Shown here piece by piece: positions 37,991 to 59,076 of a stretch of 64,000 bases of DNA. Made by a program: the position numbers and the translations under genes. Each line of letters opens with the position of its first letter. Position 1 is the first letter of the stretch. Source of the stretch: Lachnospiraceae bacterium. GTDB lineage: Bacteria; Bacillota; Clostridia; Lachnospirales; Lachnospiraceae. A model generated the notes under the pieces. It ran no database searches. It was not told the DNA's origin and worked only from the letters and a program-made list of their open reading frames with translations. The stretch is taken from positions 25,248 through 89,247 of the forward strand of contig JAUNDG010000002.1 in assembly GCA_030526195.1 (NCBI GenBank). The letters run 5' to 3'.

Positions 37991-38605
37991 TCAGTTCATG
38001 AAACGGAATACACCGGCAACCCTTCCGAGGATACGAATATCCTGATCGGGGGTGACGATGATCGGATCCATGGTGTCGTTTTCCGGCTGGAGACGGATAA
38101 AACCATCCTCTTTATAGAAGGTTTTCACTGTGGCAGAGTCATCGAGAAGTGCAACTATCATTTCACCGTTCCGAGCAGATGCCTTTTCCTCCACAAGGAT
38201 ATAGTCACCCGGAAGGATGCCGGCCTGTATCATGGATTCACCTTTAACCTGAAGCATGAAGGTCTGACCCTTCGGCAGCTTGTCTGCCGGGATTGGGAAG
38301 TAGCTGTCGATATTCTGTTCGGCCAGAAGCGGCTGACCGGCGGCAACGGTCCCGACCATGGGCACCTGGACCATCTCCCGGCGCATGGAATAGAAGCTGT
38401 CGTCGGTGATCTCGATGGTTCTGGGCTTTGTGGGGTCACGACGAATCAAACCGTTTTTCTCAAGAGTGGCCAGATGGGCGTGAACGGAGGAAGTGGATTT
38501 CAGATCCACAGCCTTGCAAATATCACGCACTGAAGGCGGATACCCTTTTTCGAGAATCTGCTCTTTGATATAGTCAAGGATTTCCTGCTGTTTTTCGCTG
38601 ATCAT
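37991..38605 (-). CDS. lexA: LexA repressor
   Basis: N-terminal winged HTH (PSVRDICKAVDLKSTSSVHAHL), the cleavage site VAAGQP, and S24 peptidase Ser/Lys (VKGESM...KTF). Confidence 0.95.
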   Translation of the reverse strand: MISEKQQEILDYIKEQILEKGYPPSVRDICKAVDLKSTSSVHAHLATLEKNGLIRRDPTKPRTIEITDDSFYSMRREMVQVPMVGTVAAGQPLLAEQNIDSYFPIPADKLPKGQTFMLQVKGESMIQAGILPGDYILVEEKASARNGEMIVALLDDSATVKTFYKEDGFIRLQPENDTMDPIIVTPDQDIRILGRVAGVFRFMN

Positions 38606-38684
38606 ATGAAACCTCTTTTCTTGTGTGTGTGTTGTGTATCCTGTGCCTGCCGGGTCGTTTTGAGGTTAACGATCCGGCAGTGTG

Positions 38685-38757
38685 CAAACGTGTGTTCTGA
38701 CATAACTATACCATATCAAAAGAGCAAAAACAAACATTAGTTCCGAACAGACATTCT
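38685..38757 (-). promoter_or_regulatory. lexA autoregulatory region: three LexA (Cheo-type) boxes bracketing a TTGTTT-17-TATAGT promoter
   Basis: Boxes CAAACGTGTGTTCT (38685-38698), CAAACATTAGTTCC (38731-38744) and CGAACAGACATTCT (38744-38757). On the minus strand, the -10 TATAGT is at 38705-38710 and the -35 TTGTTT is at 38728-38733. Confidence 0.6.
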
Positions 38758-38915
38758 TTTTTGCGGCATTTTATATCTGCCGAACGGAGTATTTTTAGGG
38801 TTTTGGCCCAACAATTTGGCCTGTTTCATACTATGTTCACATTTGCTGTGCTATAATCGCCCCATCAAGACATGGTGAACACATTCATCATTTTTGGGAA
38901 TCAAAGGAGGTTATT

Positions 38916-39395
38916 ATGAGAAAAGTAAAAGTATTGATCAGTATGGCTATGGTAGCAGCTCTGGCATTTATGATGACAGCCTGCGGCGGCACAAAGGCAG
39001 AAGACAAACCGGCTGAAACACCGGCTGCCACAGAAACACCGGCTGAAGCAGAATCAGATGAACCGGAAGGTGATGTTGATTACGCACATCCGGACATCGT
39101 CATCGAATTCGGTGATCATGCCGCCATCGAAAAACTGGCTAAGGACAACCAGAATTTTGAAACAGCCGAAGGCACCATCGTTAAGATCACAGGTATCCTG
39201 AATACCGATCTGTCCACACCGACAATCAACGAAGAAGTTGATGAAAGCAACAAGGTTGGTGTCAGCTTCTATGTTGACGGCGATTGGGAAGCACCGGCCA
39301 ACGGCTCCAAGATCGAACTCACCGGTGTGATCGTCCAGGGCAATATGTTTATGAAGCTTCAGGTTCCGTCAGGCAACATCTCTGTTGTGGAATAA
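38916..39395 (+). CDS. lipoprotein of unknown function
   Basis: Lipobox FMMTAC-GG after a signal peptide, a Pro/Thr/Glu-rich linker, then a globular domain of about 100 aa. AAAGGAGG RBS. Confidence 0.65.
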   Translation: MRKVKVLISMAMVAALAFMMTACGGTKAEDKPAETPAATETPAEAESDEPEGDVDYAHPDIVIEFGDHAAIEKLAKDNQNFETAEGTIVKITGILNTDLSTPTINEEVDESNKVGVSFYVDGDWEAPANGSKIELTGVIVQGNMFMKLQVPSGNISVVE

Positions 39396-39451
39396 TGAGA
39401 ACGCTGAAAGTCAAGTAAGCACATAACAATCGAATATTCATAAGATAAGTG

Positions 39452-39486
39452 AGAGCCTGCGGGAAAGCCTGCAGGCTCTTTCTTTG
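39452..39486 (+). terminator. intrinsic terminator after the lipoprotein gene
   Basis: AGAGCCTGC-GGGAAAG-CCTGCAGGCTCT followed by TTCTTT. Confidence 0.65.
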
Positions 39487-39655
39487 TCCATTTACCTTTA
39501 GCTATGAATCCGTTGGTAAATAGCGCAAGAGTAAGCCGATGAGGCATGTCGCGTCTTTGTAACGATGTTTGTTATTTTTCGAATCTAACACCAGCATTTC
39601 TGAATCCGCTGATATAACGAATGGATCAGCGTAACACGGTCAAAAACAGGGCATT

Positions 39656-39751
39656 CGAAAATATGTTCGAAAAAGTGTTAAAATAATATTGACAAACGTA
39701 CGTTCGGGAAGTATTATCAGTTCAAGAACGGATGTTCGGAACGGTTGTTCG
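39656..39751 (+). promoter_or_regulatory. SOS-controlled promoter: TTGACA-17-TATTAT with four LexA boxes
   Basis: Boxes CGAAAATATGTTCG (39656-39669), CAAACGTACGTTCG (39693-39706, inside the spacer), AGAACGGATGTTCG (39725-39738) and GGAACGGTTGTTCG (39738-39751). The -35 is at 39689-39694 and the -10 at 39712-39717. Confidence 0.7.
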
Positions 39752-39785
39752 CCCAGCGAACGGAAGAGTAATGAGGAAAGAGAAG

Positions 39786-40196
39786 ATGAAGAGACAGAGA
39801 ACATACTATTACGATTATGACAGACATACTTACAGACAAAACCGTACCGGAAGATCCTATGCAAAAGCTGTGGCTCGCCAGCAAAAAGACCAGTTAAAGC
39901 ACTGGAAACTGACAGCCGTTATTCTCATCGTGGTATGTATTCTGACCATTGCATTTGCCATGATTCTGACAACAAGCGAAACACGCGCTGATGAACAGGC
40001 TGAAGTAAAAAGCTACGTCAGTTATGAGATTCAGGCCGGTGATACCTTATGGAGCATCGCCTCAGACATTTATTCAAGTCAATCAGATATCAAACGCTGC
40101 GTAGCCGAAATTAAAATGATCAATGGTATCAGCGAAGATCTGATTCATGCCGGATGCCACATCATCGTACCGCAGATTGATTCTGCGATGGTCTGA
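39786..40196 (+). CDS. YneA-like SOS-induced LysM membrane protein (candidate cell-division inhibitor)
   Basis: A basic N-terminus, one TM segment (LTAVILIVVCILTIAFAMIL) and an extracytoplasmic LysM domain (YEIQAGDTLWSIA...INGI...AGCHIIVP). The start could instead be ATG 39771. Confidence 0.6.
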   Translation: MKRQRTYYYDYDRHTYRQNRTGRSYAKAVARQQKDQLKHWKLTAVILIVVCILTIAFAMILTTSETRADEQAEVKSYVSYEIQAGDTLWSIASDIYSSQSDIKRCVAEIKMINGISEDLIHAGCHIIVPQIDSAMV

Positions 40197-40400
40197 CCGA
40201 CACCATAGTTTTGTCATCACAGAGTTCCCCCTTTTGTCTGTGATTTGACATATTGTTTGTTTACCTCATATTGATATGTGCCCCTTGCACAGAGAAGCCG
40301 TCATGTCTATTCGCCGTGGACATGGCGGTTTCGCATTTTTGACATCTTTACAAGGGGATACAGATATATCTTTTCGCCAAACGCGAGTTTAACGAAAAGA

Positions 40401-40429
40401 TTGACAAGGGATTAAGGGAATATTACAAT
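40401..40429 (+). promoter_or_regulatory. candidate promoter of the recombinase gene (TTGACA-17-TACAAT)
   Basis: TTGACA at 40401-40406, a 17-nt spacer and TACAAT at 40424-40429. Confidence 0.5.
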
Positions 40430-40564
40430 ATATTAGGAATAATCGGTAAAAACTACCGTGCATTTGCCCGTCAAACCGATGATCACGTTTTGATGGTCTA
40501 TGCACCTAACACCGTTAATACAATCAGATTTAGAAATCAGACACACACAACGAGGTACACCGCT

Positions 40565-41644
40565 ATGGCTGATCGTCAGACTTATCATCAGCAAAATGAC
40601 ATCAAGAATATTTTAAAGCTCCGTGAAGTCCTGGCCACGCTGCCGGCTTTCGTTAAGGATTATTTCCGGTCTATTGATGCCACCACATCCACGAAAACCC
40701 GTATTTCCTATGCTTATGATATCCGGGTCTTTTTTCAGTTCCTTCAGTCCATGAATCCGGTCTGGAAAAACCAGGCTCTGACGGACTTCAAAATTGATGA
40801 CCTGGATAAAGTCAATGCCCGTGACATTGAGGAATATCTGGAATATCTCAAATACTACGAAGCGCCCGCCGAGAATACAGCCGCCGGGGAATCCCGGACC
40901 TGCACCAACGGCGAACGTGGTCTCAAGCGCAAAATGTCAGCTCTGCGCAGCTTTTATGCCTATTATTTCCGTCAGGAAATGATCAAAACGAACCCCACGG
41001 TGCTTGTGGATATGCCCAAAATTCATGAACGAACGATTGTTCGATTGGATGCGGATGAAGTGGCCATGTTGCTGGATTTTGTTGAAAATGCCGGCAATGT
41101 GTTAACCGGTCAGGCCCTGGCTTATTATCAGAAAACCCGTGAACGTGATCTGGCCTTAATGACTCTGCTTCTGGGGACTGGTATTCGAGTCTCGGAATGT
41201 GTGGGGCTTGACATTGAGGATGTGGACTTTAAGAACAACGGGATCAAGATCGTTCGAAAAGGCGGTAATGAGGCTGTTGTCTACTTTGGCGATGAGGTGG
41301 AACGGGCTCTCAGGGATTATCTGGATGTGCGGGCCGGTATCGCCCCCTGCCCCGGTCACGAGCATGCTCTCTTCTATTCTACACAGAGAAAACGGATGAC
41401 CGTGCGTTCTGTTGAAAATCTGGTTGAAAAATATGCCTCACAGATCACCGGGACCAAGAAAATCACCCCTCATAAGCTCCGCAGTACTTACGGCACCGCT
41501 CTGTACCGCGAGACAGGCGATATATACCTCGTGGCGGATGTTCTGGGCCACAAGGACGTCAATACCACCCGTAAGCACTACGCGGCCATGGACGACCTCA
41601 GACGGCGCCAGGCGGCCGGTGCGGTCCAGCTGCGTGAGGATTGA
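40565..41644 (+). CDS. Xer-type tyrosine recombinase, XerS-sized (359 aa)
   Basis: Catalytic region RDLALMTLLLGTGIRVSE (Arg), ITPHKLRSTYGTALY (H-x-x-R) and LGHKDVNTTRKHY (His, Tyr). The N-terminal core-binding domain is long. GAGGT RBS before ATG 40565. Confidence 0.85.
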   Translation: MADRQTYHQQNDIKNILKLREVLATLPAFVKDYFRSIDATTSTKTRISYAYDIRVFFQFLQSMNPVWKNQALTDFKIDDLDKVNARDIEEYLEYLKYYEAPAENTAAGESRTCTNGERGLKRKMSALRSFYAYYFRQEMIKTNPTVLVDMPKIHERTIVRLDADEVAMLLDFVENAGNVLTGQALAYYQKTRERDLALMTLLLGTGIRVSECVGLDIEDVDFKNNGIKIVRKGGNEAVVYFGDEVERALRDYLDVRAGIAPCPGHEHALFYSTQRKRMTVRSVENLVEKYASQITGTKKITPHKLRSTYGTALYRETGDIYLVADVLGHKDVNTTRKHYAAMDDLRRRQAAGAVQLRED

Positions 41645-41708
41645 GTCATGCCTCACTTCAGATTTGTGATCATGCCACATCACGAGTCTGAAGTTGATTG
41701 AGATGGTT

Positions 41709-41735
41709 AGTTTCCATAATGATATTACGTAAACT
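41709..41735. other. dif-like recombination site candidate (11-bp arms, 5-bp core)
   Basis: AGTTTCCATAA-TGATA-TTACGTAAACT. The arms are 9/11 inverted repeats, and the right arm is one mismatch from the TTATGTAAACT arm of Bacillus-type dif as I recall it. Confidence 0.45.
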
Positions 41736-41794: not shown

Positions 41795-41845
41795 AAAACA
41801 GCCCTCGGCTTCAGACAATCTGTCTTTGAAGTCGAGGGCTGTTTT
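41795..41845. terminator. bidirectional intrinsic terminator at the convergence point
   Basis: AAAACAGCCCTCGGCTTCAGACA...TGTCTTTGAAGTCGAGGGCTGTTTT: a long stem flanked by an A-run and a T-run. Confidence 0.8.
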
Positions 41846-41856
41846 ATCATCACATC

Positions 41857-42543
41857 TTACAGAACTTTCTTTTGAATATTGTCGTATTCGCGATTCTCAC
41901 ACCAGTAGACAGTCCGTTCTGTTGTATCAAACACCATGGACACGACTGTGGGGCAAACTTCCTGTGAGCAGGCCTTAAGAATCTTAAAAATATCATCCAC
42001 ATCGCCATCATCGGGCATAGCGGCTAACATCTTTTCAGCTGTCTGAAATCGATCAAGGCCCATCCAGGGGTGCATTTCAGATTCGCCTTTAAACGGCGAA
42101 AAATTCGTCAGGACAATGTGATCGGGCTTTTCATAGTATTTGTATCCCTGGCCGGGAATGATATGCAGCACATTGCCTTCTGCATCTGTCAGTGATGACA
42201 TAAAGGTTACCCCCGGTATACTGTAAACAGGCTCCTTTTCAGCGATGGACTTAATTTCCTGAAATGTTTTCTTCTGAAGTAAAAGATCTATGCCAAGCAT
42301 CATGGTGATCGGACAGGCCGGTGAAACCGGATTGCTGCGGTCATCAAAGGGATGACAGGTCGGCATACCCACAAAATCACCGCGCTTATTAGCGCCAAAA
42401 ATCGGGATCCACCCTTCTTTGTCATCTTTGATATCGATATAGACACCATTTTCATCGGAACGGACCCGATGGACCATGCCCAGAATATCAAGATTCCAAC
42501 CTACTAATGTTTTGTTTTTATTGACAGTTATGCTTGTGCACAT
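41857..42543 (-). CDS. Ntn-hydrolase-like protein (choloylglycine hydrolase/linear amide C-N hydrolase-like), short form
   Basis: Starts MCTSITVNKNKTLVGWNLD, with Cys2 as the candidate N-terminal nucleophile and an N-x-D further on. GGAGAG RBS before ATG 42543. At 228 aa it is shorter than typical family members (about 320 aa). The ORF-track extension to 42576 overlaps the repeat element. Confidence 0.5.
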   Translation of the reverse strand: MCTSITVNKNKTLVGWNLDILGMVHRVRSDENGVYIDIKDDKEGWIPIFGANKRGDFVGMPTCHPFDDRSNPVSPACPITMMLGIDLLLQKKTFQEIKSIAEKEPVYSIPGVTFMSSLTDAEGNVLHIIPGQGYKYYEKPDHIVLTNFSPFKGESEMHPWMGLDRFQTAEKMLAAMPDDGDVDDIFKILKACSQEVCPTVVSMVFDTTERTVYWCENREYDNIQKKVL

Positions 42544-42558
42544 GTTTTCTCTCCTCTG

Positions 42559-42611
42559 AAAAGCGGACACTCGCAATACCCGCAGGGCACGATGTCCGCT
42601 TCGCTACTTGC
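42559..42611 (-). repeat. 52-nt conserved hairpin element, copy B, in the 5' leader of the Ntn-hydrolase-like gene
   Basis: The reverse complement, GCAAGTAGCGAAGCGGACATCGTGCCCTGCGGGTATTGCGAGTGTCCGCTTTT, matches 32353-32404 at 49/52 positions. It ends 16 nt before ATG 42543. Confidence 0.75.
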
Positions 42612-46418: not shown

Positions 46419-48020
46419 TTACCCCCGGCGTCTCCGGTCGATACCGGAGGCTTTGTAGAACTCACTCTTCTGCCGGTACATGTCTTCATCGGCCTGTTTG
46501 AGGATATCCTCGAAGACCAGGCCACCGGCCATAGAGTCCTGATAGACAGCCCCCAGAGACCCGTTAGAGCCCATAAGTTCCCGGGCCATGGCGACCTTGC
46601 GCTCGAAACCTTCCCGGGAAATGGCGGTGTCAACGGCAATAAACTCATCGCCGCCCAGCCGATAGATCGTGCCCTCACCGAACACACTCTTCATAACAGC
46701 ACACACATTGAGGATCAGCCGGTCACCGGCATCATGGCCGTACTGATCGTTGGTGATCTTCAGGTTATTGACATCGCACATGGCAATGGCCAGTGAATGA
46801 CTGCTGTCAAAGTGACGGGTATACAGGGCCTCCAGAGCTTTGCGGTTCAGGGTATCCGTCATACCGTCATGGAGCGCGTTATAAGTCATTTCCTGCGTGT
46901 TATCCCGTAAACGCAGCATGAAGGAAATGATAAATTCCATCATACTGATCAGATCTGAAATATCCTGCAGCTTATCAAGGGGAGGATTGTCGACACCATA
47001 GAAGCCGACCATTTTCCCTTCCACAATGATGGGACCCGTAACCAGGGAGTTGATGCCCTGAGGTTTCAGAATATCATACATGGGCTGACTGATGCTGCGA
47101 TAGTCTTCCAGATTGCGAATAATGATGTTGTTGGATTTGCGATATCCGTTGTACCCGACCTCGATGACTCCTTCGTAGGGCACGTTCTGGAGATTATCGA
47201 TCTCGGCGCTTACCCCTTCGCGGCACCACTCATAAGTATTATCAAAACTGCCGGTGTCATTTTCTTCGAAAATGTAGGCCCGGTCAGCCTTCAGGTTTTC
47301 GCAGATATACTGGATCAGCTGATTGATCACCTTGTTGGGCTCACCCTCTGACGAGGCATAACGCACCATATCCGTGATAAAGACATCATAGGTATCGATC
47401 TTGTCATGGATATGACGGTTGTCGATTTCCAGTGTCTCAATGCGCAGGCGATACAGGATTTTCTGCATCTTATGACGCATGATGATGGCGGTGATCACTA
47501 AACTGAGCAGGCAGTAGGGAATGATATTCACCAGATTATAGGCAAAGATGGCCGGCGGCTGTGTTCGGGAAGCCATAACGATATAAACCACCAGACTGCA
47601 AAGAATGATGCTGTTCATGATCCAGGTTCTGGCGGTGAACAAAAGCGGTACCGCGATCAGCATGACAATGTAGGCCACCGTCAGATCATTAGGGGTTAAG
47701 AGCGTCCCCATGACAATGCCGAAGGACAAAAGGGCCATAAAGAACACATAAACCAGAAGGTTCTTGACCCGTACCGGAACGGCTTTCAGGGACATCAGGA
47801 TATAAATGACGGCTGAAACAAGCGCGTAGGTCAGATAAAGGCCCTTATTCCGGTAAATACTTGGTGAGAAGTGGCTGACGAGGGTCATCATGGCGAAAAT
47901 GGCAATCCCGATAACCGCAAAGACCCTGAGGCTCTGGCGGTTATCCTTCCAGACCTCTTCTTTTATCAGTGCATAATCTTCTTTTTTAAAAGAGAAAAAT
48001 GAAAACTTCTCTTCCATCAT
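46419..48020 (-). CDS. membrane-bound diguanylate cyclase (multi-TM N-terminus, GAF-like domain, GGDEF)
   Basis: About 6 TM helices, a central GAF-like region, and the C-terminal RLGGDEFIAV active site with an upstream inhibitory-site-like motif. Confidence 0.85.
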   Translation of the reverse strand: MMEEKFSFFSFKKEDYALIKEEVWKDNRQSLRVFAVIGIAIFAMMTLVSHFSPSIYRNKGLYLTYALVSAVIYILMSLKAVPVRVKNLLVYVFFMALLSFGIVMGTLLTPNDLTVAYIVMLIAVPLLFTARTWIMNSIILCSLVVYIVMASRTQPPAIFAYNLVNIIPYCLLSLVITAIIMRHKMQKILYRLRIETLEIDNRHIHDKIDTYDVFITDMVRYASSEGEPNKVINQLIQYICENLKADRAYIFEENDTGSFDNTYEWCREGVSAEIDNLQNVPYEGVIEVGYNGYRKSNNIIIRNLEDYRSISQPMYDILKPQGINSLVTGPIIVEGKMVGFYGVDNPPLDKLQDISDLISMMEFIISFMLRLRDNTQEMTYNALHDGMTDTLNRKALEALYTRHFDSSHSLAIAMCDVNNLKITNDQYGHDAGDRLILNVCAVMKSVFGEGTIYRLGGDEFIAVDTAISREGFERKVAMARELMGSNGSLGAVYQDSMAGGLVFEDILKQADEDMYRQKSEFYKASGIDRRRRG

Positions 48021-48131
48021 GTTACCTCTTAAAGCACCGCCGGAAGCGGTTTATTTTGTGTATGCCGTGCCTTTATCATGGAGCAGCATGCTGATTTATC
48101 AGTATGCGGATTTCCCGTTATGTATCGCCGA

Positions 48132-50555
48132 TTATTTCAGTATTGCCGCCAAAGCCTCATCCAGCTTATCAAGATGAATGGGCTTGGCCACATGGCCGTT
48201 CATCCCCGCCTCAAAGGCCTTGCGTCTGTCCTCTTCGAAGGCATTGGCGGTCATGGCGATGATAGGGGTGGAAGCCTTTTCCGGGTGTTCCAGAGCGCGG
48301 ATGCGCCGAGAAGCCTCGTAACCGTCCATAAAGGGCATCTGGATATCCATAAGAATCAGGGCATAGGTGTGGGGCGCGGCATCCTCTATGATGGCCACAG
48401 CCTCGGCACCGTCATCGGCGATATCCACCAGGAAGCCTTTGTTCTGCAGGATTTCATAAGCGATCTCCTGATTGAGTTCATTGTCCTCAACCAGAAGCAG
48501 GCGAAGACCTGTATAAGCCACCGTTTTGGGTGCTGTGTCATCATTCCCGGATTCATCATGGCGGTTGTTAGATGTGAAGTCGTCTTCACACGCGGCCTGT
48601 GATACCACCTGCAGCGGCAAGGTGACGGTAAAGGCTGTGCCTTCGCCTACACGGCTGTCAACCGTGATCTCACCGCCCATCATATCCACGATGCTCTTGG
48701 TGATGGCCATGCCAAGGCCGGTGCCCTGGATGCCGCTGACCGTGGAGGTCTGCTCACGGGTAAAGGGCTCAAAGATCACGGCCATGAACTCTTCGCTCAT
48801 GCCGATACCGGTATCACGAACAACAAACGTAAATTGAGATGTTTCGCCTTTGACAGTTTCATTTTCGGAAATGGTTAAGCTGACGGCCCCACCGGCTTTG
48901 GTGAATTTCATGGCATTGCTTAACAGATTCAAAAGCAGCTGGTTAAGGCGCAGCTTATCGCAAATGACAAAGTCATGTTCGACCGCATGACTGTCCACGG
49001 TAAAGGTCAGCCCTTTGGATTCCATATCCGTCATGATGATGGTGGAAAGATCCCGAATCAGGGTATTTAAGTGAACCTGTGATTCCTGAATCGTGATCTT
49101 ACCGGACTCGATACGGCTCATGTCCAGCACATCATTGATGAGATTGAGGAGATGGCCGCCGGCCGTGCTGATCTTGCCAAGATAATCCCGGACACGGTCG
49201 GGATCGTCCGTGTGATCGGCCGCCAGGGAACTGAAACCAATAATGGCATTCATGGGCGTACGCATGTCATGGCTCATATTGTTGAGGAAGGTGGTCTTGG
49301 CCCGATTGGCTTTTTCTGCCTGTTCCAGAGCTTCCTTGAGAATACGCTGTTTTTCCTGTTCGGCCCGGACCTCATCGTCCACGATGGCAAAGCCCATGAC
49401 CACATGTCGGAAGGCGGGTTCCTCTTCTACCTTGGCGATACGCAGCTGGGCATAAAGCTCAGTGTCGCCGCGACGAAGTCGATACTGATAGGACAACATG
49501 CGATCTTTTTTCAGGACCTCATGGAGATAATCAGGATCCGAAAAACGAAGCATTTCCGCCACCTGTTCCGGCACGGCGAAATTTTTGACATAGTTGCTGT
49601 AAACATGTTCAAAGTAATACTGTTTATTGAGTTCAATGCCGTAGATGGTCGTGGACGCATCGGACAGACGGATGGGAATGGCCGTGTTCTCAAGGAGATC
49701 CACATAGTAGACCGAGGAATATTCCTGGCTGAGAATCTGCACAACCGAGGCCTGACGGTTCAGGGCAATCTCCTCCTGCAGGAGTTTTTCCTGAAGCTTC
49801 AGTCGCTCATCGGTGGCTTTAGCGGCCTGATGCAACAGGGCATCCTCTTTTTCACGTTTTAAATGTTCCGCCTGATGACGGCGACCAAGGCTTACGGTAA
49901 AGAAACAGATGAGGCCAAGAGAGATGATCACGATCACCAGCTGAATGAGACTGTTCCGGAAAATGCTGGAATTGGAATCGCTGATGATCCTGCCCACCAC
50001 ATTTTCGCGAATACGGACAGAGACCATCCAGTCAGTATCCGGCACCGGTTTGTAATAAAGGCAGCTGCGACCCTCATCGTTGGCTGTGTAGACCACATAG
50101 CCCTCCCGGTGATTCTGCCAGTCCTCGATGACCCGATCGCAGGGATACTCCGTCGGGAACACACAGTTATGGCGCCACACATCGAAAATGCTGCTGCCAT
50201 CGGCATAGCGGCCTTCCTTTTCGAGAACGGCGGTACCGTCACTGCCGTTAAAAATGCGGGTGAGCACCTGTGAGTCAGCTGTGTCCAGTAAGGACGCATT
50301 GATGATGTCAGTCAGATTATCGGCATTTGCAGAAGCATGCTTCAGACGACCGGTCACATCAGTGACCGTATGATCCGCTATCTCCTTCAGATAGAATTCA
50401 CCGAGAGCTGTAGAGGCCTGATCGGTGATGCGTCCTGTCTGAGCACTGTAGACAATGGTTGAGATGACAATGATAAGCGCAGCAAGAATCAGAACGATGA
50501 TCGTTCCGATATCAGAGTATTTATGTCCTGATGTTGCGCGCTGTGTGTTCTTCAT
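48132..50555 (-). CDS. hybrid sensor histidine kinase/response regulator with extracytoplasmic Cache-like sensor
   Basis: Two TM segments flank a domain of about 170 aa. H-box [11 protein letters not shown], HATPase G-boxes (DTGIGM, GTGLGM) and a C-terminal REC domain ([13 protein letters not shown]). Confidence 0.9.
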
Positions 50556-50619
50556 GGCATCTGATCGTATGGGGCTGGTGATTGGTTATCGGATAATAGT
50601 TGATGTTAATAAGCGCTAT

Positions 50620-50650
50620 GAGCCTCTGATGCGATTGGCGTCAGAGGCTC
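50620..50650 (-). terminator. hairpin after the AI-2E permease gene (probable terminator, weak T-tail)
   Basis: 10-bp stem GAGCCTCTGA/TCAGAGGCTC. Confidence 0.45.
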
Positions 50651-50668
50651 GATTCTAGCTATCAATTA

Positions 50669-52267
50669 TTAGAATTCAGGTGTGTCATCAGAAACCGCTG
50701 ATTCGTCAGAGGCTTCTGTGTCAGTCCCGGCATTGGCTTCTTCAAGACGCTGCTGGGCTTCCATTTCGGCATGGGCCTCTTCCACTTCGGAGCGAATCTG
50801 CTCGGCTTCGGCCTGAGCCTGTTCGGCTTCGTGAAGGGCATCCACATGACGCCAGGCTTCTTCCGCCTGAAGAGAAATCTTCCGTTTCTCCATCAGAGCC
50901 CGGACGGATTCCTCTGTCTGATCCCAGACAGTTTCCTCTGCCGGATTCAGCTTATTCTCATACTTCTTACCGAAATGCTTCAGCTTGTCATACAGACCCA
51001 TTTTCCCATCAATAGGACGGTCTGTGACCGGCTTATGGGTTGTGGGATCCATTTCCCACATAGTGCGGTAGGATTCCAGATCGGAAGGCAGGTCCTTCTT
51101 AAGCGTAGACTTGATCACGTAGGTCTGGATGATGGCGAAAATAATGGCGCACAGCGGGACTGCTATGATCATACCCACCATGCCCAGGATGCCGCTGCCG
51201 ATGAGGATCGAGATCAGCACCAGGAAGCTGGATACACCCACGGAGTTGCCCAGGATCTTCGGGCCCAGGAAGTTGCCGTCAAACTGCTGAAGGACAATGA
51301 TCAGGATAATGAAGTAAAGGGCCATCAGCGGATCCACAAAGAGGATCAGGATCGCGGAGGGAATGGCCCCGATCAAGGGTCCGAAGAATGGAATGATGTT
51401 CGTCAGACCGATGACGATGGCGATCAGCATGGGATACGGCATGTGCAGGATCGACATGGCCACATAGCAGATAATACCGATGATCAGGGAGTCGATGAGC
51501 TTACCGATGATGAAGCCGCCGAATTTCTTATCCACGAACCGCAGATTGTGCACGATCATATTAGCAGCGGTGATGGAGAATACAGCATACACCAGCCGTT
51601 TGAAGCGGGCTTTGATGCGGTTTTTATAGATGAGCACATAGACGGATACGATAAGTCCCAGCACCATATTGGCGATAAAGCCCACAATGCCGACCACATG
51701 CGTGGTAACCTCGCTCACAAGACCGTCGATACCGGGACCCAGGTTTTCATTAAGGAAGTCGAAAATCTGGCTCACATAATCAACAGCGGTGTCGGCCGCT
51801 GTCTCACCGAAGGTGTTGTTCAGGAACCCGGAACCGGAAAAGAGCTGGCTCAGCAGTTTATTGGCCTGATCAAAATAAGTGGGCAGGTTATCAATGATGC
51901 CCTTGATACTCTGGACAAGTTCAGGCACAATGCGGCTGATCACACCGTAAATGATCAGGATCAGTATGATGACCACACCGATGGAGCTGATAAAGCGGAT
52001 CACATTGCGGGTCCGTTTGCTCAGTTCCCGGTGATTATGACCGCATATCTTCAGGAGCAGACGCTCGATGAGCATCATAAAGGGATCCAGAAGATACGCG
52101 ATGGCAAAGCCGTAGACCACCGGGGCCAGTACCTTGCCGATGCCCCTTAAGCCCGCGGCAATGGATGAGACGCGGAATAACAGGAAATAAAACAGAATAC
52201 AGGCCGCAAAGGTCACAAAGCCCGTGACGGCGATCTTTCCGTATATTGTCTTTGGTTTCCATTTCAT
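50669..52267 (-). CDS. AI-2E family (PerM/YdiK-like) transporter with long charged C-terminal extension
   Basis: Polytopic core with the typical conserved region IPFFGPLIGAIPS. The C-terminal ~150 aa are hydrophilic and include an Ala/Glu/Gln-rich helix. Confidence 0.85.
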   Translation of the reverse strand: MKWKPKTIYGKIAVTGFVTFAACILFYFLLFRVSSIAAGLRGIGKVLAPVVYGFAIAYLLDPFMMLIERLLLKICGHNHRELSKRTRNVIRFISSIGVVIILILIIYGVISRIVPELVQSIKGIIDNLPTYFDQANKLLSQLFSGSGFLNNTFGETAADTAVDYVSQIFDFLNENLGPGIDGLVSEVTTHVVGIVGFIANMVLGLIVSVYVLIYKNRIKARFKRLVYAVFSITAANMIVHNLRFVDKKFGGFIIGKLIDSLIIGIICYVAMSILHMPYPMLIAIVIGLTNIIPFFGPLIGAIPSAILILFVDPLMALYFIILIIVLQQFDGNFLGPKILGNSVGVSSFLVLISILIGSGILGMVGMIIAVPLCAIIFAIIQTYVIKSTLKKDLPSDLESYRTMWEMDPTTHKPVTDRPIDGKMGLYDKLKHFGKKYENKLNPAEETVWDQTEESVRALMEKRKISLQAEEAWRHVDALHEAEQAQAEAEQIRSEVEEAHAEMEAQQRLEEANAGTDTEASDESAVSDDTPEF

Positions 52268-52332
52268 GGCGGTGATGTCCTCTAATGAAAATATTGTCTG
52301 TGAGTCATCAAACGATAGTGTGACGCTGTTGA

Positions 52333-52962
52333 TCAGCCTTCAATCCCATCCTTCAGGGCGCAGGCTTTGATGATGAGATCGGCGCAGCCTTCAATGCCCA
52401 GCACACTGCTGTTAAGGCACAGGTCATAGCTTAAGGAAGCGCCCCATTTTTTATTAGTGTAGTAATTGTAATAACTGCTGCGCTTCTTGTCATTTCTGAG
52501 AATCTGGTCGTGAGCCTTTGTCAGGGTCAGATCCGCATGACGGGTCATAAGTGTTTTGGCCCGGTCATCTTCTGATGCATGGATAAAGGTGGAGAACAGG
52601 GGCGCAAAGCCTTCAAGGGCATAATCGGCGCAGCGGCCGACAATGACACAGGGACCTTCCTGGGCAATGCTGCGGATGGCCTCAAACTGAGCCTGGAAAA
52701 CCTTATGCTCCAGGGGCAGGCCGGTAAAGCCGGTGGCCCCGTAGCCGAACCCGTTGCCCATTACCAGTGAGTAAAGGAAACTGTTGGTAGGCTTTTCGTC
52801 ATGCTGTTCCAGGATTTCTTCGCAGAAGCCACTTTCCTTTGCGGCTCTCTCCAGCAGGTTATTATCATAAAAGGGAATACCCAGACGATCAGCGATGAGG
52901 CGGCCGATCTGTCTGCCGCCGGAGCCTGTCTGTCTGCCGATTGTAATAATAGATCTCATCAT
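52333..52962 (-). CDS. cytidylate kinase-like family P-loop protein
   Basis: ITIGRQTGSGGRQIG P-loop variant. 209 aa, the typical 'cytidylate kinase-like' layout. Confidence 0.7.
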   Translation of the reverse strand: MMRSIITIGRQTGSGGRQIGRLIADRLGIPFYDNNLLERAAKESGFCEEILEQHDEKPTNSFLYSLVMGNGFGYGATGFTGLPLEHKVFQAQFEAIRSIAQEGPCVIVGRCADYALEGFAPLFSTFIHASEDDRAKTLMTRHADLTLTKAHDQILRNDKKRSSYYNYYTNKKWGASLSYDLCLNSSVLGIEGCADLIIKACALKDGIEG

Positions 52963-53876
52963 ACACCTCCGAGTTTTTTGAGTAATGCTTTATAGTAGGC
53001 AGGGAGTTCTGCCTCAAATCGTACCGCTTCATGGGTGGTGGGATGTTCAAACCCGATCACCGCCGCATGGAGGGTCTGTCCCGTCAGAGGATAGGGACAT
53101 TTTTTCGGACCGTAAAGCGGATCTCCCAGAAGCGGGTGACCCAGGGAAGCCATATGGACACGGATCTGATGGGTCCGGCCGGTTTCCAGTCGGAATTCGC
53201 AGTCGTCATACCCGTTCAGGCGCTGCAGCACCCGGTAATGGGTCACCGCATGACGGCCGTTTGGATCCACAGCCTGTTTTTTCCGATCCTTTTTATCGCG
53301 GCCCAGGGGCTTATCCACGGTACCGCTCTCCTCCTTCAGATGACCGATGACGATGCCCCGGTACACACGCTCGATATCGTGCACCTTGAGCTTATCGGCC
53401 AGAAACTGATGGGCTTTGTCATTTTTGCAAATGATAAGTGAACCGGTGGTGTCCTTATCGATCCGATGGACGATCCCCGGTCTCATTATACCATTAATTC
53501 CCGATAACTGGTCACCACAATGATAAAGAATGGCATTTACCAACGTATCATCCGTATGCCCGGCGCTGGGATGGACCACCATATCCTTGGGCTTGTTGAT
53601 GATGAGAATGTCATCATCCTCGTAAATGATATCCAGGGGCATGTCCACCGGCCGGATGTCGCAGGGCTCCGGTTCCGGCACCTCCAGGGTGATCACTTCG
53701 CCCCCTTTAAGCTTTAAGGATACCTTGGGCTGCTTGCCATTGACGCATAAGCGCCCCTCTTCCGCCAGTGTCTGCAGGCGGGAACGGGAAATGTCGGGCC
53801 AGGCAGCGGCCAGGTATTTATCAAGACGAGTCGGCGCCTCAAGGGCCGGCACCGTCAGACTGCGCAAGTCACTCAT
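52959..53876 (-). CDS. rluD: RluA-family 23S rRNA pseudouridine synthase (RluD-like) with S4 domain
   Basis: N-terminal S4 domain (RLDKYL), the catalytic motif HRIDKDTTGSLI, and the C-terminal GRTHQIRVH. Confidence 0.9.
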   Translation of the reverse strand: MSDLRSLTVPALEAPTRLDKYLAAAWPDISRSRLQTLAEEGRLCVNGKQPKVSLKLKGGEVITLEVPEPEPCDIRPVDMPLDIIYEDDDILIINKPKDMVVHPSAGHTDDTLVNAILYHCGDQLSGINGIMRPGIVHRIDKDTTGSLIICKNDKAHQFLADKLKVHDIERVYRGIVIGHLKEESGTVDKPLGRDKKDRKKQAVDPNGRHAVTHYRVLQRLNGYDDCEFRLETGRTHQIRVHMASLGHPLLGDPLYGPKKCPYPLTGQTLHAAVIGFEHPTTHEAVRFEAELPAYYKALLKKLGGV

Positions 53877-53913
53877 AGACGCTTCCTTTCGGTTGTGTCT
53901 TCGCTTCGGCCGT

Positions 53914-54411
53914 TTATTTGAGGCTCAAGAAGTCGAAATCTTCATTTTTATAAACAAACAAAATGAGCAGGACGAGCACCGCCACGCCCACGGACACATA
54001 AATGTCCGCTACATTGAAGATCGGGAAATCAATCAGGGAAAAATAAATGAAATCCCGGACATATCCGAAGACAATGCGGTCCACCAGATTCCCCACAGCG
54101 CCGGCCATGATCACCAGGATGGTGAGGCGCATCAAGAGGAAACGGCGTGTGTTCGGGACTTTAATGAGCACATAAAGGGCCACTGCCAGGAAAATAGCCG
54201 TGATGATAATAAAGAAGACACGGGCATCCTGCAGCAGACTGAAGGCGGCGCCATGGTTCTCCAGATAGTGAAATTCCAGCACATTGTTGATGAGCGGCAG
54301 CGGGGTGCCAAGGCGCGATGCCGCCAGCGCTTTGGTGACAAGATCTGCCGCCACCAGCACAATAAAGAGCACCAGGGATTTGATGATACGGGACGGTGTC
54401 AGGGTTTTCAT
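53914..54411 (-). CDS. lspA: lipoprotein signal peptidase II
   Basis: 165 aa with four TM segments. NHGAAFS and FNVADIYV catalytic Asp motifs. Confidence 0.9.
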   Translation of the reverse strand: MKTLTPSRIIKSLVLFIVLVAADLVTKALAASRLGTPLPLINNVLEFHYLENHGAAFSLLQDARVFFIIITAIFLAVALYVLIKVPNTRRFLLMRLTILVIMAGAVGNLVDRIVFGYVRDFIYFSLIDFPIFNVADIYVSVGVAVLVLLILFVYKNEDFDFLSLK

Positions 54412-54414
54412 AGC

Positions 54415-55506
54415 TTAAACCTCCGGACAGATGGCCGCAATGCCGTTCATCATCTCCTCATCCGTCACGTCATATGCCGTGAACGCATCCCCGAGGGCGC
54501 GAAGAAGCACAAAGCGAATCTGTTTATTCTGCATTTTTTTATCGGATTTTGTGTTGTTCAGGACAGCCTGCCGGTTGATAGCCTCACAGGACACGGGCAG
54601 AGCTAAGGCCTTCAGGGTCTTCACAATATCCTCATGATCCTTTTCGGAAATGAGGCTGCGGTCGGCGCTCATGCGTGAAGCGGCCACCATGCCAAGGGCC
54701 ACACATTCCCCGTGGGTCATGGTGAAATTAAGCGCTTTTTCAACGGCGTGACCGATGGTATGGCCGAGATTTAAAAGCATACGCTCGCCATTTTCAAAGG
54801 GGTCACGGGTGACAACGCCCTGCTTGATCATACAGGTGCGGCGGACCATTTCCTCGAGAGTTGCCGTGTCGTGGGCGTTGATGGCCGCTACATTTTCTTT
54901 AAGCCAGTTGTAGAGGGCCTCATCCTTGATAAGGGCAGACTTCACCACTTCTGCCATACCGGATCGGAACTCCCGCTCCGGCAGCGTGCCGATGACGGCC
55001 ATGTTGATGTAGACCAGAGACGGCATGTGGAAAGCGCCGATCATGTTCTTGTAATCGTTATAATCGAAGCCGGTTTTGCCGCCGATGGAAGCATCCACCT
55101 GGGATAACAGGGTCGTGGGGATCTGGATGAAAGGAATGCCCCGCATGTAGGTGGCGGAGGCAAAGCCGGTCATATCGCCGATGACACCGCCCCCCAGGGA
55201 AATCAGCAGACTCTTCCGGGTGAAGCCGGCGGGGATCAGGGCATCGTAGATGCTTGTGATGGAGGTGAGGTTCTTATGGATCTCACCGGCCGGGATGGTG
55301 ATCAGGAGCGGCTCCGGATCGAAGGTGCGCAGGCACTCTAAGATGGACGCGCTGTAAAGAGGCGCGGTGTTGGAATCGGCAATGACAGCGATCCGGTCGG
55401 GTGTGAGCCCGGTTTTCCGGATGGCGTCAGCCAGAGATTCGAAACTGTCAGTGAGCACAATATCGTAGGCGGAACCGTCTTTATTGGTAATGGTTAAGGT
55501 ATTCAT
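54415..55506 (-). CDS. aroB: 3-dehydroquinate synthase
   Basis: GGGVIGDMTGFASATYMRGIPFIQIPTTLL and GHTIGHAVE metal/NAD motifs. AAGGAGGG RBS before ATG 55506. Confidence 0.9.
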   Translation of the reverse strand: MNTLTITNKDGSAYDIVLTDSFESLADAIRKTGLTPDRIAVIADSNTAPLYSASILECLRTFDPEPLLITIPAGEIHKNLTSITSIYDALIPAGFTRKSLLISLGGGVIGDMTGFASATYMRGIPFIQIPTTLLSQVDASIGGKTGFDYNDYKNMIGAFHMPSLVYINMAVIGTLPEREFRSGMAEVVKSALIKDEALYNWLKENVAAINAHDTATLEEMVRRTCMIKQGVVTRDPFENGERMLLNLGHTIGHAVEKALNFTMTHGECVALGMVAASRMSADRSLISEKDHEDIVKTLKALALPVSCEAINRQAVLNNTKSDKKMQNKQIRFVLLRALGDAFTAYDVTDEEMMNGIAAICPEV

Positions 55507-55650
55507 AGGGAAGGGCGTACCCTCCTTTCTCAAAAATAAAAGAAAGCATCAGACGATGAGCGCCTGACGCTTTTTAGATCTGAATAGTCAAGCGGATAAG
55601 TGGCATCCGCTTCTTAGCCCGCGCAGGACCGTTAAGCGGCTGCGGGTGCT

Positions 55651-56289
55651 TTAATACTGCGATTTCATCATGGACAGATCGATGGACCCGTTCAGGATGT
55701 CTTCATAATCACCGGTGAGTTCAACATTTTCCGGTGTCAGAATGAAGATGTAGCTGGAGATCTTCTTAAGGCTGGCATTAAGTGAGTAGGTTGTGCCACA
55801 GGTGAAGTCGATGATGCGCTGAGCCATCTCTGTATCAAGACCTTCCAGGTTGAGGAGGACGGTATAATTGTCAAGCAGCGTATCGGCAATGAGCTGAGTA
55901 TCCTCCATGGATTTTGGCCTGATCACGTTGACAGCCATGCCGGCGGGAAGACTTCTCTTACCGCGGATCGGTGTAACCTTAGGACCGGCGGCCTTGTGCG
56001 TCTGTTTTTCCTTGGAGAAACGATCTGTTTTCTCAGTGGGCTTGTCAGCCTTGGGCGCCTTCGGGGCCGGGCCGGTTGCTTTCTTAGAGGATTTCTTCGG
56101 TTTTGGTTCATCGAAATCTTCGAATTCGTCAAAATCGTCGATATCATTTTCCTTAAAGCGTTTGAAAAATCTGTTTTTCGGTTTATCTTCCTCGTAATCG
56201 TCGAAGTCTTCGTCGTCGAGGAATTCTTCGTCGTCATCATAGTCATCGTTGAGTTTGATGGCGTCTAAAAAGCGATCTAAAAGTCCCAT
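55651..56289 (-). CDS. sepF: cell division protein SepF with expanded charged linker
   Basis: N-terminal amphipathic MGLLDRFLDAIKL and a C-terminal DUF552 core (VLLNLEGLDTEMAQRIIDFTCGTTYSLN). Adjacent to yggS. Confidence 0.85.
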   Translation of the reverse strand: MGLLDRFLDAIKLNDDYDDDEEFLDDEDFDDYEEDKPKNRFFKRFKENDIDDFDEFEDFDEPKPKKSSKKATGPAPKAPKADKPTEKTDRFSKEKQTHKAAGPKVTPIRGKRSLPAGMAVNVIRPKSMEDTQLIADTLLDNYTVLLNLEGLDTEMAQRIIDFTCGTTYSLNASLKKISSYIFILTPENVELTGDYEDILNGSIDLSMMKSQY

Positions 56290-56304
56290 TTTTTATACTC
56301 CGTT

Positions 56305-56997
56305 TTATACCTGATAATAGCGTTTGCCGAAGATATCCGAGCCCACACGCACCATGGTTGAGCCCTCTTCCACCGCTATCTTGTAATCATTGGACATACC
56401 CATACTAAGGGTAGTACCACACATATTATTGAGGTTTTTGGAATTTATGTCAACACTTAATTTCCGAAGCTCGGCGAAGAAGGGACGGTCATCCTCCGGG
56501 TCATCCAGGAAGGGCGCGCTGGTCATCAGACCCTCAAATCGGATGTGCGGATAGTCTGCCAGAGCGGCCACAAAGGCCGGGGCTTCTTCTGCGGAAATGC
56601 CGAATTTGCTTTCCTCTCCGCCGACGTTCACTTCCACCAGGATCGGAATAATCCGGTTGTGTTTCGCCGCTTCCTTATCGATGACGGCTGCCAGTTCCAG
56701 TGAATCCACGGAATGGATCATGGCCACGTAGGGGGCGATGTATTTGACTTTGTTCTTCTGTAAATGACCGATCATGTGCCAGTTAATATCCTTGGGCAGA
56801 TGCTCCTGCTTCTCCCGCAGCTCCTGCACATAATTTTCGCCGAAATCCCGATGGCCGGCTTCGTAAAGCTCCATAATATCGGCTTCAGGCTTTGTCTTGG
56901 AGACCGCCAGCAGGGTGACATCCCCGGCATCACGACCCACCTTGGCACAGGCCTCGGCGATATTGTCTTTTACAGCATTCAGATTATCAATGAGCAT
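56305..56997 (-). CDS. yggS: YggS/YlmE-family PLP homeostasis protein
   Basis: LLAVSKTKP (PLP lysine), HMIGHLQKNK and the C-terminal MVRVGSDIFG. Confidence 0.9.
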   Translation of the reverse strand: MLIDNLNAVKDNIAEACAKVGRDAGDVTLLAVSKTKPEADIMELYEAGHRDFGENYVQELREKQEHLPKDINWHMIGHLQKNKVKYIAPYVAMIHSVDSLELAAVIDKEAAKHNRIIPILVEVNVGGEESKFGISAEEAPAFVAALADYPHIRFEGLMTSAPFLDDPEDDRPFFAELRKLSVDINSKNLNNMCGTTLSMGMSNDYKIAVEEGSTMVRVGSDIFGKRYYQV

Positions 56998-57051
56998 GAA
57001 AACGCTCCTTTCTTACTAAATATACCAACTTAAAATTCTGTCATGTATAGA

Positions 57052-57162
57052 GGGAATCTTCCCTTCGTGCCTGTCAATCTCTGATGGGGGGAATCTTCCC
57101 TTTGTGTCTGTCATTCTCTGATTGGGGGAATCTTCCCTTCATGCCCGTAATCTCTGCTCGGG
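57052..57162. repeat. three tandem 37-bp direct repeats, each starting with the mini-palindrome GGGAATCTTCCC
   Basis: Units run 57052-57088, 57089-57125 and 57126-57162. By eye each pair differs at several positions, with the GGGAATCTTCCCTT head conserved in all three (identity not counted). A degenerate partial unit lies just upstream (57030-57051). Confidence 0.85.
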
Positions 57163-57168
57163 CATTCA

Positions 57169-58569: not shown

Positions 58570-58602
58570 TGGGGAGCCTCTTTTCGTGACTCCTATCCAT
58601 TA

Positions 58603-59022
58603 TTACAGGGCTGTGTTAACCAGAGCCTGCAGATCGGCATCAAGATCAGCCTTATCAACAGACAGAGTAACTGTCATGTCGATTGAATATTCATCACAAA
58701 TCTTCATTATTTTATGGCATACCGGTGCAACATCTTCTTTTTCGATGCCCGGGATCTTAAGGAGACCATCGATATACATCTGTTCGATGTCTCTGTTCTG
58801 GGAAATGATACCCATGACAAAACCCAGCATCTCGTCAGCTGTGGCAATCGGGAAGTCCTTTGTGCAGATGAGACGAATCTTGTTGTTTAACTCATACATG
58901 TGTCTCATGCTGTGATCTAAATAGACGACGCAGCCTTTTGCTTCTTTCACTTTTTCGTTTGCTGTGTCGATAAGGATACGAGTCTTACCTTTGCCTTTTT
59001 CACCGGTGATTAAACTAACCAT
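58603..59022 (-). CDS. minimal P-loop NTPase (139 aa), function unknown
   Basis: Walker A GEKGKGKT at residues 7-14 and Walker B-like CVVYLD. AAGGAGG RBS. Confidence 0.5.
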   Translation of the reverse strand: MVSLITGEKGKGKTRILIDTANEKVKEAKGCVVYLDHSMRHMYELNNKIRLICTKDFPIATADEMLGFVMGIISQNRDIEQMYIDGLLKIPGIEKEDVAPVCHKIMKICDEYSIDMTVTLSVDKADLDADLQALVNTAL

Positions 59023-59076
59023 GGCGTTATACCTCCTTGAATTCAGACAGTATAGAGCATGTCCGTTATAGGTATA

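Follow-up and report, generated by a model that had tools for sequence, protein, structure and literature searches.

The window analysed here, a stretch of 64,000 nucleotides (nt) from a metagenome-assembled genome (MAG) of a Lachnospiraceae bacterium, contains an XerS-like tyrosine recombinase gene with one palindromic site upstream of it (site B) and another downstream (site A). Site B and the recombinase probably constitute a dimer-resolution module of the difSL/xerS type, with site A as a separate XerC/D-type site, either a dif or a site resembling the XDS sites of Bacillus subtilis. It is very likely that an XerS-type module, linked to the gene and probably run by a single recombinase, is present. 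Site B is the better candidate for the cognate site because its linkage to the gene is universal, its sequence and architecture resemble those of difSL, and prophage junctions are found at it in relatives. The preliminary description of this DNA, made from the sequence alone, had also proposed a single-recombinase module, with site A as the partner of the enzyme; the module stands, while the partner was probably wrongly chosen and site B fits instead. The three central features, in window coordinates, are as follows.

40565..41644, + strand: XerS-like tyrosine recombinase of 359 amino acids (aa), the final + strand gene ahead of the strand switch (NCBIfam XerS; Pfam Phage_integrase and SAM_1)
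40368..40401, no strand: site B, ATCTTTTCGCCAAAC-GCGA-GTTTAACGAAAAGAT, a 34-bp palindrome and the proposed cognate site of the recombinase (linkage, difSL likeness, prophage junctions)
41709..41735, no strand: site A, AGTTTCCATAA-TGATA-TTACGTAAACT, a palindrome of two XerD-type arms, spacer 5 bp, where the replichores converge

Site B upstream of the recombinase gene

Site B was detected by comparing an empty with an occupied locus of Blautia obeum, which gave a junction 15-mer core that recurs without change upstream of the gene in about 60 species. This 15-mer forms the left arm of the Blautia element, an imperfect palindrome of 34 bp, ATCTATACGACAAAC-CCGA-GTTTTTCAAATAGAT. In the window the arms are mirror images of each other at 13 of 15 positions, and the inner positions at which they depart from the Blautia consensus are the same in both. 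When a relaxed pattern was used, a single copy was found 50-300 bp upstream of the gene at 81 of 87 loci, and four of the six loci without it are cut short upstream. The arms co-vary between lineages and the palindrome is kept. Site B of the window ends 164 nt before the ATG of the recombinase and shares one base with the -35 box, its last base being the first of TTGACA-N17-TACAAT, and this layout with TTGACA after B recurs in many orthologous loci.

The minimal difSL that has been used experimentally in Lactococcus lactis is ATCTTTCCGAAAAAC-TGTA-ATTTTCTTGACA (PMC2965235). Streptococci and lactococci all have difSL directly upstream of xerS, and it has been proposed to be part of the xerS promoter (PMC1914069). 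The left arm of L. lactis difSL agrees with the left arm of site B in the window at 12 of 15 positions, and the 4-bp gap and the RTTT that follows are common to both. Scored with a position weight matrix (PWM) of B arms, the left arm of difSL reaches 16.5 bits and the window's own arms reach 18-20 bits. Only 7e-5 of background 15-mers attain 16.5 bits, about as many as there are true B arms among them. The right arm of difSL gives no score on this matrix, which fits its documented extra nucleotide and weaker binding.

In 12 species (L024, L026-L029, L036, L041, L044, L048, L057, L069 and L076, at about 9880-9950 of each locus) site B is inverted relative to the recombinase and still upstream of it. 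At locus L072 (3511-9962) B lies 6.5 kb upstream of the gene, with an open reading frame (ORF) of 1209 aa between them; no inovirus genes were found in this gap, an inovirus was therefore rejected as its cause, and another kind of insertion at B is possible.

Prophages at B-type sites

Two samples of B. obeum (L137, L143) carry a 6.2-kb inovirus, with Rep, Zot and a gp8-like coat protein, between dtd and the recombinase gene, and no recombinase domain was found among the called genes of the L137 inovirus. The sequence common to its attL and attR is ATCTATACGACAAACCCG, the left arm of B together with the spacer. At attL the host left arm and spacer are followed by a degenerate phage right arm, full B is regenerated at attR, and a partial B in inverted orientation is found about 100 bp in from the left end of the prophage. 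Two prophage calls from isolate genomes (L093, L094) have 29-bp direct repeats, 6,229 bp apart, that contain the left arm and spacer of B; this prophage carries Rep and a Zot-like gene, and a recombinase gene 60 % identical to that of the window lies just beyond it. In a third phage-host lineage (L097, L337) a relative of the Blautia phage abuts a B-type site located 9 bp (L097) or about 60 bp (L337) from A. No tyrosine recombinase was detected by tblastn in the prophages of the three lineages.

Every defined junction of an integrase-less prophage in the relatives is at B and none is at A. The inoviruses of L097 and L094 had been considered as integrations at A, and their junctions prove to be at B-type sites 9-530 bp from A. 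These junctions suggest that B-type sites have been recombined in vivo in relatives, presumably by the host recombinase. Active inoviruses that lie between direct repeats have been reported from Lachnospiraceae (Enterocloster); neither an integrase nor a mechanism of attachment has been described for them (PMC10061712).

At least 70 gut phage contigs (L144-L263), many of them 40-130 kb long, hold a complete B-type palindrome, for example ATCTATACGACAAAC-ACGA-ATTTGTCGTATAGAT. These palindromes are intergenic, beside an ORF of 193-217 aa (for example at L180 10973, L195 13716 and L166 3411), with no XerS-like gene nearby. They may be attP sites for the host enzyme, multimer-resolution sites, or something else. 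CI/LexA operators were rejected as an explanation, as the adjacent ORFs of about 200 aa are without helix-turn-helix or S24 domains and one is weakly similar to a terminase small subunit. In the raw viral 15-mer scan, about 50 of the 120 matches listed are without the full palindrome and probably arose by chance.

The XerS-like recombinase

The preliminary description had given the recombinase 359 aa and the motifs R...HxxR...H...Y, and both hold: the catalytic residues are present as R (GIRVSE), HKLR, LGH and KHY. Its suggestion of an XerS-like size and layout is supported by the length and by the best NCBIfam match, XerS (NF003462), at 214.4 bits over the full length of the profile (positions 8-353 of 360). 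The XerA, XerC and XerD profiles gave 170, 170 and 153 bits, respectively, and a true streptococcal XerS scores 561 bits on the XerS profile. By BLAST the recombinase is 29-30 % identical to true XerS (114-123 bits) and 25-31 % identical to XerC-like proteins of Clostridia (112-133 bits), and true XerS and the Clostridia XerC-like proteins give merely 80-85 bits against each other. No XerS structure exists; the nearest solved relatives of the recombinase are the catalytic domains of XerA and XerD, and XerH structures score 43 bits. On these comparisons the recombinase is a distinct Xer lineage; it appears XerS-like in each architectural feature tested and scores below the curated membership level. 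Such genes are now annotated merely as 'tyrosine-type recombinase/integrase' or as a generic 'XerD'.

Replication terminus

The replication terminus of a Lachnospiraceae chromosome lies within the window. Long ORFs lie on the + strand up to 41644, with the exception of lexA and of ORFs nested in larger + strand ORFs, and from 41857 to 64000 every long ORF that fits a non-overlapping gene map is on the - strand. The sign of the GC skew changes at 40-42 kb. After about 48 kb (48000-64000) the skew is positive again and the genes are still on the - strand, so the second replichore gives a weak or locally disturbed skew signal in the window.

Orthologous loci from 80 species, one per species, were compared, and terminus statistics were taken from the 48 whose flanks extend the full 10 kb. 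In 47 of these 48 the coding strand and the GC skew both switch precisely at the recombinase 3' end. Coding DNA amounts to 436 kb (+) versus 36 kb (-) on the left and 34 kb versus 384 kb on the right, and the mean GC skew is +0.098 to the left of the recombinase 3' end and -0.086 to its right. True xerS of streptococci shows the same strand-switch geometry, at 47 % and 55 % of two complete chromosomes. The coordinate of the Ruminococcus sp. OA3 ortholog proved uninformative for placing the terminus, the sequence being a whole-genome shotgun scaffold whose origin is unknown.

A block of genes for DHQ (3-dehydroquinate) synthase, lspA, rluD and cytidylate kinase is upstream of the recombinase on the + strand in Blautia (L134 6083-9315) and downstream on the - strand in other Lachnospiraceae (L006 8595-11089); this shift is a terminus-centred rearrangement. 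In one species a single sample (L005 7920-9722) has an insertion sequence element with a DDE_Tnp_1 transposase shortly beyond the terminus, and the other samples of this species (L006, L007) lack it.

Site A and its motif family

The preliminary description had placed a 27-bp dif-like site about 65 bp after the recombinase, with arms that are inverted repeats at 9 of 11 positions, a 5-bp spacer and a right arm one mismatch away from that of Bacillus-type dif. All of this was borne out. Site A (27-mer AGTTTCCATAATGATATTACGTAAACT) begins 64 nt after the stop codon, its arms of 11 nt each are inverted repeats at 9 of 11 positions, and its right arm TTACGTAAACT agrees at 10 of 11 with the TTATGTAAACT arm of B. 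subtilis and Staphylococcus aureus dif in Kono's table. The 27-mer, which had been expected to be unique in the whole genome, is single-copy in the window even at 3 mismatches. Its 11-5-11 geometry (27 bp) falls outside the 11-6-11 (28 bp) of classical dif. A hairpin or terminator, in RNA or DNA, is ruled out as an explanation of the site by a fold that is not significant (z = 0.18) and by the absence of a T-tract.

The family to which site A belongs has the consensus GTTTACATAA-N5/6-TTATGTAAAC, where TTATGTAAAC is the right-arm consensus of the clade and the left arm mirrors the XerD arm in relatives. These arms equal the arm that Kono et al. list as the XerD-binding one in dif of Firmicutes. 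With a half-site PWM, 1.46 Mb of related loci yielded 36 A sites whose spacer is 5 bp long and 26 whose spacer is 6 bp long, and shuffled sequence yielded about 1-2 per replicate. The 35 distinct strong A sites of the clade divide into 21 with a 5-bp, 12 with a 6-bp and 2 with a 7-bp spacer. The 5-bp spacer of site A is thus the commonest state in the clade and no one-off deletion, and the dif-like element with a non-canonical core is genuine, as had been claimed. Mirrored arm substitutions are 2.3-fold more frequent than expected (17 versus 7.5); they were not used as evidence. The A half-site scores -32 bits on the B PWM, its arms (GTTTACATAA) being unlike those of difSL and B. Judged from their sequences, the members of this family are XerC/D-type sites of the terminus, separate from the putative cognate site of the recombinase.

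The expectation that the site would be conserved in relatives carrying the same recombinase failed in part, since an A site was found at 44 of 85 loci (within +-10 kb) and its position varies. The A sites of relatives lie 0 to 8.5 kb from the recombinase gene on either side: directly after the gene at about 13 loci, 3.5 kb upstream by lexA at others, and 8-9 kb upstream in many Blautia, where the site precedes the strand switch by this distance, co-oriented genes continue beyond it, and A and B are separated by about 8.4 kb. Convergence from + to - genes was seen at 18 of 22 strong A sites, with a less sharp switch than when loci were anchored on the recombinase gene. Some loci have 2-3 copies. 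Such duplicated sites were rejected as the ends of an integrated element, because the DNA between them in the Blautia luti group is ordinary (aldolase, two-component system, citrate synthase). In the closest orthologs (76-80 % identity, L005-L010) and in Blautia L001 site A is absent downstream of the gene, which rules it out as a fixed downstream partner of the recombinase.

A metagenome scan for perfect A sites with a 5-bp spacer gave at least 120 loci. The short flanks of about 20 of the 120 listed contain a true B or an XerS-like gene, about 50-fold above random expectation and not exclusively, and several among the matches listed have two or three perfect A sites at distances of 80 bp to 3 kb from one another. 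Clusters were seen in L264 (3 sites in 160 bp), in L360 and L370 (2 sites each, 81 bp apart) and in L355 (3 sites in 3.3 kb). A small viral contig (L095 3967-4040) has four tandem A-type half-sites (GGTTTACATAA) around one full site.

Perfect A sites with a 5-bp spacer also occur beside XerC-like genes, which encode proteins of 323-333 aa. In L293, L316 and L355 the distance from such a site to the 3' end of a gene for a recombinase of 326-333 aa is at most about 0.45 kb, and in L293 and L316 the site is directly at this end; the best full-length matches of the protein are XerC (221-241 bits) and XerD (200-228 bits), not XerS. In a Clostridiales genome (L392-L394, 1-558 and 10001-11026) an XerC-like gene and the site GGTTAACATAA-ATAAG-TTATGTTAACC are located at a strand switch, and a second tyrosine recombinase of 304 aa adjoins spoIIM 9.5 kb away. 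The A site of L392-L394 is embedded in a palindrome with a 20-bp stem and A6 and T6 flanks. No B element was found in the fetched flanks of the loci with an XerC-like gene and A, those of L392-L394 included, and no closer XerS-like gene was detected in L293, L316 and L355. NCBI names homologs of the A-linked XerC-like protein 'tyrosine recombinase XerC [Clostridia bacterium]', and a profile of these proteins, aimed at XerC/D of Lachnospiraceae, gave matches labelled 'Clostridia/Clostridiales bacterium' only.

A-type sites with a 6-bp spacer are found around true xerS in streptococci, often at the stop codon and sometimes in threes. Streptococcus xerS loci with such XerD-arm palindromes exactly at the stop codon are L264 (11070, 11147 and 11226), L265 (11070) and L269 (11068).

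Proposed function

In the favoured reading, two recombinase monomers would bind the two 15-bp arms of site B (40368-40401), and strand exchange across the short central segment would resolve chromosome dimers, presumably under the control of FtsK at the septum, by analogy with what has been shown for XerS of L. lactis. Occupancy of B would probably also autoregulate the recombinase gene, because B abuts the -35 box. Integrase-less filamentous phages are envisaged to carry a copy of the left arm and spacer and to integrate into B. Site A would most likely be bound by an XerC/D-type protein, an assumed partner encoded elsewhere in the genome, and may act as an additional dif of the classical kind or as an XDS-like mark of the terminus that is bound and not recombined.

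Several findings weigh against this reading. The recombinase, at 214.4 bits, misses the XerS equivalog cut-off of 267 bits, and pairwise BLAST places it at an equal distance from true XerS and from the XerC-like proteins of Clostridia. The +-10 kb around each of 80 Lachnospiraceae loci contained no XerC/D-type gene. An A site directly follows the xerS-type gene at about 13 Lachnospiraceae loci and in several streptococci, oftener than co-location at the terminus obviously predicts. The centre of site B, AAAC-N4-GTTT, weakly resembles an SOS box, and a regulatory role is possible. The prophage evidence comes from relatives and not from the window's own genome.

Alternative explanations

One possible alternative, held tentatively, is that A is a binding-only mark of the terminus at which no recombination occurs, like the XDS sites at which XerD of B. 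subtilis unloads SMC. The two XerD-type arms, the clusters in L264, L360, L370 and L355 and the unfixed spacer length agree with such a role, as does the occurrence of A-type sites in streptococci, which are reported to resolve dimers by XerS alone. This alternative is weakened by the absence of an XerD-type gene, or of any other second tyrosine recombinase gene, from the window and by the single perfect A beside an XerC-like gene, which resembles a real dif.

A more speculative reading, and a rather doubtful one, has two Xer systems side by side at the Lachnospiraceae terminus, the difSL/xerS-type cassette being a once-mobile module, similar to integrative mobile elements exploiting Xer (IMEX), that was inserted into a resident XerC/D-type dif (A). 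A-type sites bracket the entire cassette of B and recombinase in two Lachnospiraceae loci (L016 at 8080 and 11062; L086 at 138, 1260 and 3133) and in one of Streptococcus (L122 at 2961 and 4844), which is the pattern that insertion of a cassette into a pre-existing dif would leave. The same reading would explain the A sites 3' of both xerS-type and XerC-like genes and the occurrence of the cassette in two distant Firmicutes lineages. If it is true, the integrase-less inoviruses and many large gut phages with B palindromes exploit the site of the cassette.

It is unlikely that A is the true dif of a classical XerC and XerD encoded elsewhere, with the XerS-like gene and B as an accessory (a domesticated integration cassette or a phage-exploited site). 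The XerD-type arms of A speak for this, as do its location exactly at the convergence point in the window and the arrangement in Clostridiales L392-L394, where an XerC-like gene and A lie at the strand switch and a second recombinase by spoIIM. Kono et al. reported, moreover, that xerC tends to lie near dif and that Lactobacillus helveticus has both XerCD and XerS. Against these points, the pair of B and recombinase is found throughout, in one copy, and is tied to the skew switch in 47 of 48 species, whereas A is 8-9 kb off in many Blautia; two to three nearby copies and a variable spacer are unusual for an active dif, and the +-10 kb around the Lachnospiraceae loci hold no XerC/D gene.

Still less likely is the pairing put forward in the preliminary description, in which the XerS-like recombinase acts as a homodimer on site A and resolves dimers there with a 5-bp core. 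The 64-nt distance in the window, the placement of A exactly at the strand convergence, the direct succession of gene and A at about 13 other loci of the family and the A-type sites at the xerS stop codon of several streptococci all favour this pairing. The near-perfect palindromy of A would suit one protein on both arms, and no second recombinase was found within +-10 kb. The arms of A, however, share nothing with the difSL and B arms that XerS-type proteins are known or proposed to bind, as their -32 bits on the B PWM indicate. The closest orthologs are without A downstream, the site may be up to 8.5 kb away, and about half of the loci are without it over +-10 kb. The same perfect sites stand beside XerC-like genes at loci without B (three of them, from the metagenome scan, with no closer XerS-like gene), the spacer varies between 5, 6 and 7 bp, and the defined integrase-less prophage junctions are all at B.

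That B is a mere transcriptional operator for autoregulation or SOS control, and no recombination site, is very improbable: B abuts the -35 box, its centre resembles the RAAC-N4-GTTC boxes of the lexA and LysM promoters and the gene adjoins the SOS locus in many species, but the likeness to a LexA box is confined to that centre while the conserved element is 34 bp, far beyond the length of an SOS box, and matches difSL, Blautia keeps B although its gene is 8 kb from lexA, and direct repeats of the B left arm and spacer bound prophages in three independent phage-host lineages, the prophages themselves showing no recombinase domain among the called genes (L137) and no tyrosine recombinase by tblastn.

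Neighbouring genes and other features

The remaining features of the region are listed below.

37991..38605, - strand: lexA, SOS repressor (Pfam LexA_DNA_bind and Peptidase_S24)
39732..40196, + strand: LysM-domain, YneA-like protein (Pfam LysM)
40294..40332, + strand: terminator-like hairpin dividing the LysM gene from the recombinase unit
40401..40429, + strand: sigma-A-type promoter TTGACA-N17-TACAAT of the recombinase gene (11 of 12 consensus matches, the best of the region)
41655..41694, + strand: strong hairpin 3' of the recombinase gene and before site A (16-bp stem, about -23 kcal/mol, z = -4.05, without a T-tract)
41795..41846, no strand: bidirectional intrinsic terminator between the converging genes (-35.5 kcal/mol, z = -10)
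41857..42576, - strand: first gene of the opposite replichore (ORF map, GC skew)

The SOS locus that the preliminary description had noted next to the recombinase is indeed present, with RAAC-N4-GTTC boxes upstream of lexA (at 38686 and 38732) and four more ahead of the LysM gene (39656-39750). The compound hairpin that it had placed between gene and site (41655-41694) is real as well. The order of lexA, the divergent LysM (YneA-like) gene and the recombinase gene (37991-41644) is kept in L005-L010, and we take it to echo the lexA/yneA/yneB SOS operon of B. subtilis, in which yneB is resolvase-like. SOS control of the recombinase is not evident, because the gene has its own promoter and a terminator upstream of it.

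Significance

Lachnospiraceae are among the most abundant families of the human gut. If the favoured reading is true, the range of XerS/difSL, which has been thought a hallmark of streptococci and lactococci, widens to the Lachnospiraceae terminus, and the presence there of a distant, architecturally identical module bears on the origin of XerS/difSL. Integration at B would provide a concrete, testable mechanism for the inoviruses of gut Lachnospiraceae, and the many gut phage contigs flagged with the same type of site indicate a possible link to larger gut phages. The XerD-arm palindrome with a 5-bp spacer, which is widespread in Clostridia, offers a handle on terminus organisation, whether it is a dif with an unusual core or a mark for SMC unloading.

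Comparison with known systems

The XerH/difH system of Helicobacter and Campylobacter and the XerL/dif system of Legionella resemble the module proposed here in having one recombinase and palindromic arms, and in XerH the gene and site are linked as well. They differ in their arm sequences and in a remote sequence relationship, seen in the 43 bits of the XerH structures. XDS sites near the B. subtilis terminus, as summarised in PMC11840125 with reference to Karaboja 2021, are dif-like sites where XerD unloads SMC, and they would be like site A in being dif-like, near the terminus, sometimes multicopy and furnished with XerD-type arms; the difference is that the function of A sites in Lachnospiraceae or streptococci is purely inferred.

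The classical XerC/XerD (CodV/RipX)-dif of Firmicutes shares with site A a right arm that agrees at 10 of 11 positions (TTATGTAAACT) and the inner ATAA...TTAY palindrome, and both are AT-rich, intergenic and at the terminus. Classical dif has an 11-6-11 structure with distinct XerC and XerD arms, whereas site A is 11-5-11 with both arms of the XerD type and varies in copy number and spacer among relatives. The supplement of Kono 2011 has no Lachnospiraceae entries.

The phages at B-type sites resemble IMEX such as CTXphi, VGJphi and TLCphi of Vibrio and LME-1 of Legionella (PMC5357621, PMC9765430), which are also integrase-less and integrate at the dimer-resolution site of the host. Common to both are a phage attP with one good and one degenerate arm, the inverted partial site about 100 bp inside one prophage end after Xer-mediated integration, as in CTXphi, and mobile-element junctions that reveal the host site, as for Legionella LME-1. 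The target differs, being here a difSL-type site of an XerS-like enzyme in a Gram-positive gut anaerobe. The literature searched described no IMEX case at such a site, and neither an XerS-type module nor Xer-exploiting phages in Lachnospiraceae.

The closest counterpart is XerS/difSL (Le Bourgeois 2007, PMC1914069; Nolivos 2010, PMC2965235), for which Le Bourgeois 2007 reports functional work in Escherichia coli, L. lactis and Streptococcus pneumoniae. Both systems have a recombinase of about 356 aa, probably a single one here as well, encoded by the last gene before the terminus strand switch, and a site immediately upstream of the gene, at the promoter, that consists of two arms of about 15 bp ending in ...GAAAAAC, a 4-bp gap and then RTTT.... 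The window protein is 29-30 % identical to true XerS and under the curated cut-off, and site B is 34 bp long, nearly symmetric and without the extra base that weakens the difSL right arm. The host belongs to the Clostridia (Lachnospiraceae), whereas the module has been described as a landmark of Streptococcaceae, and a second site of the XerD-arm type accompanies the module here.

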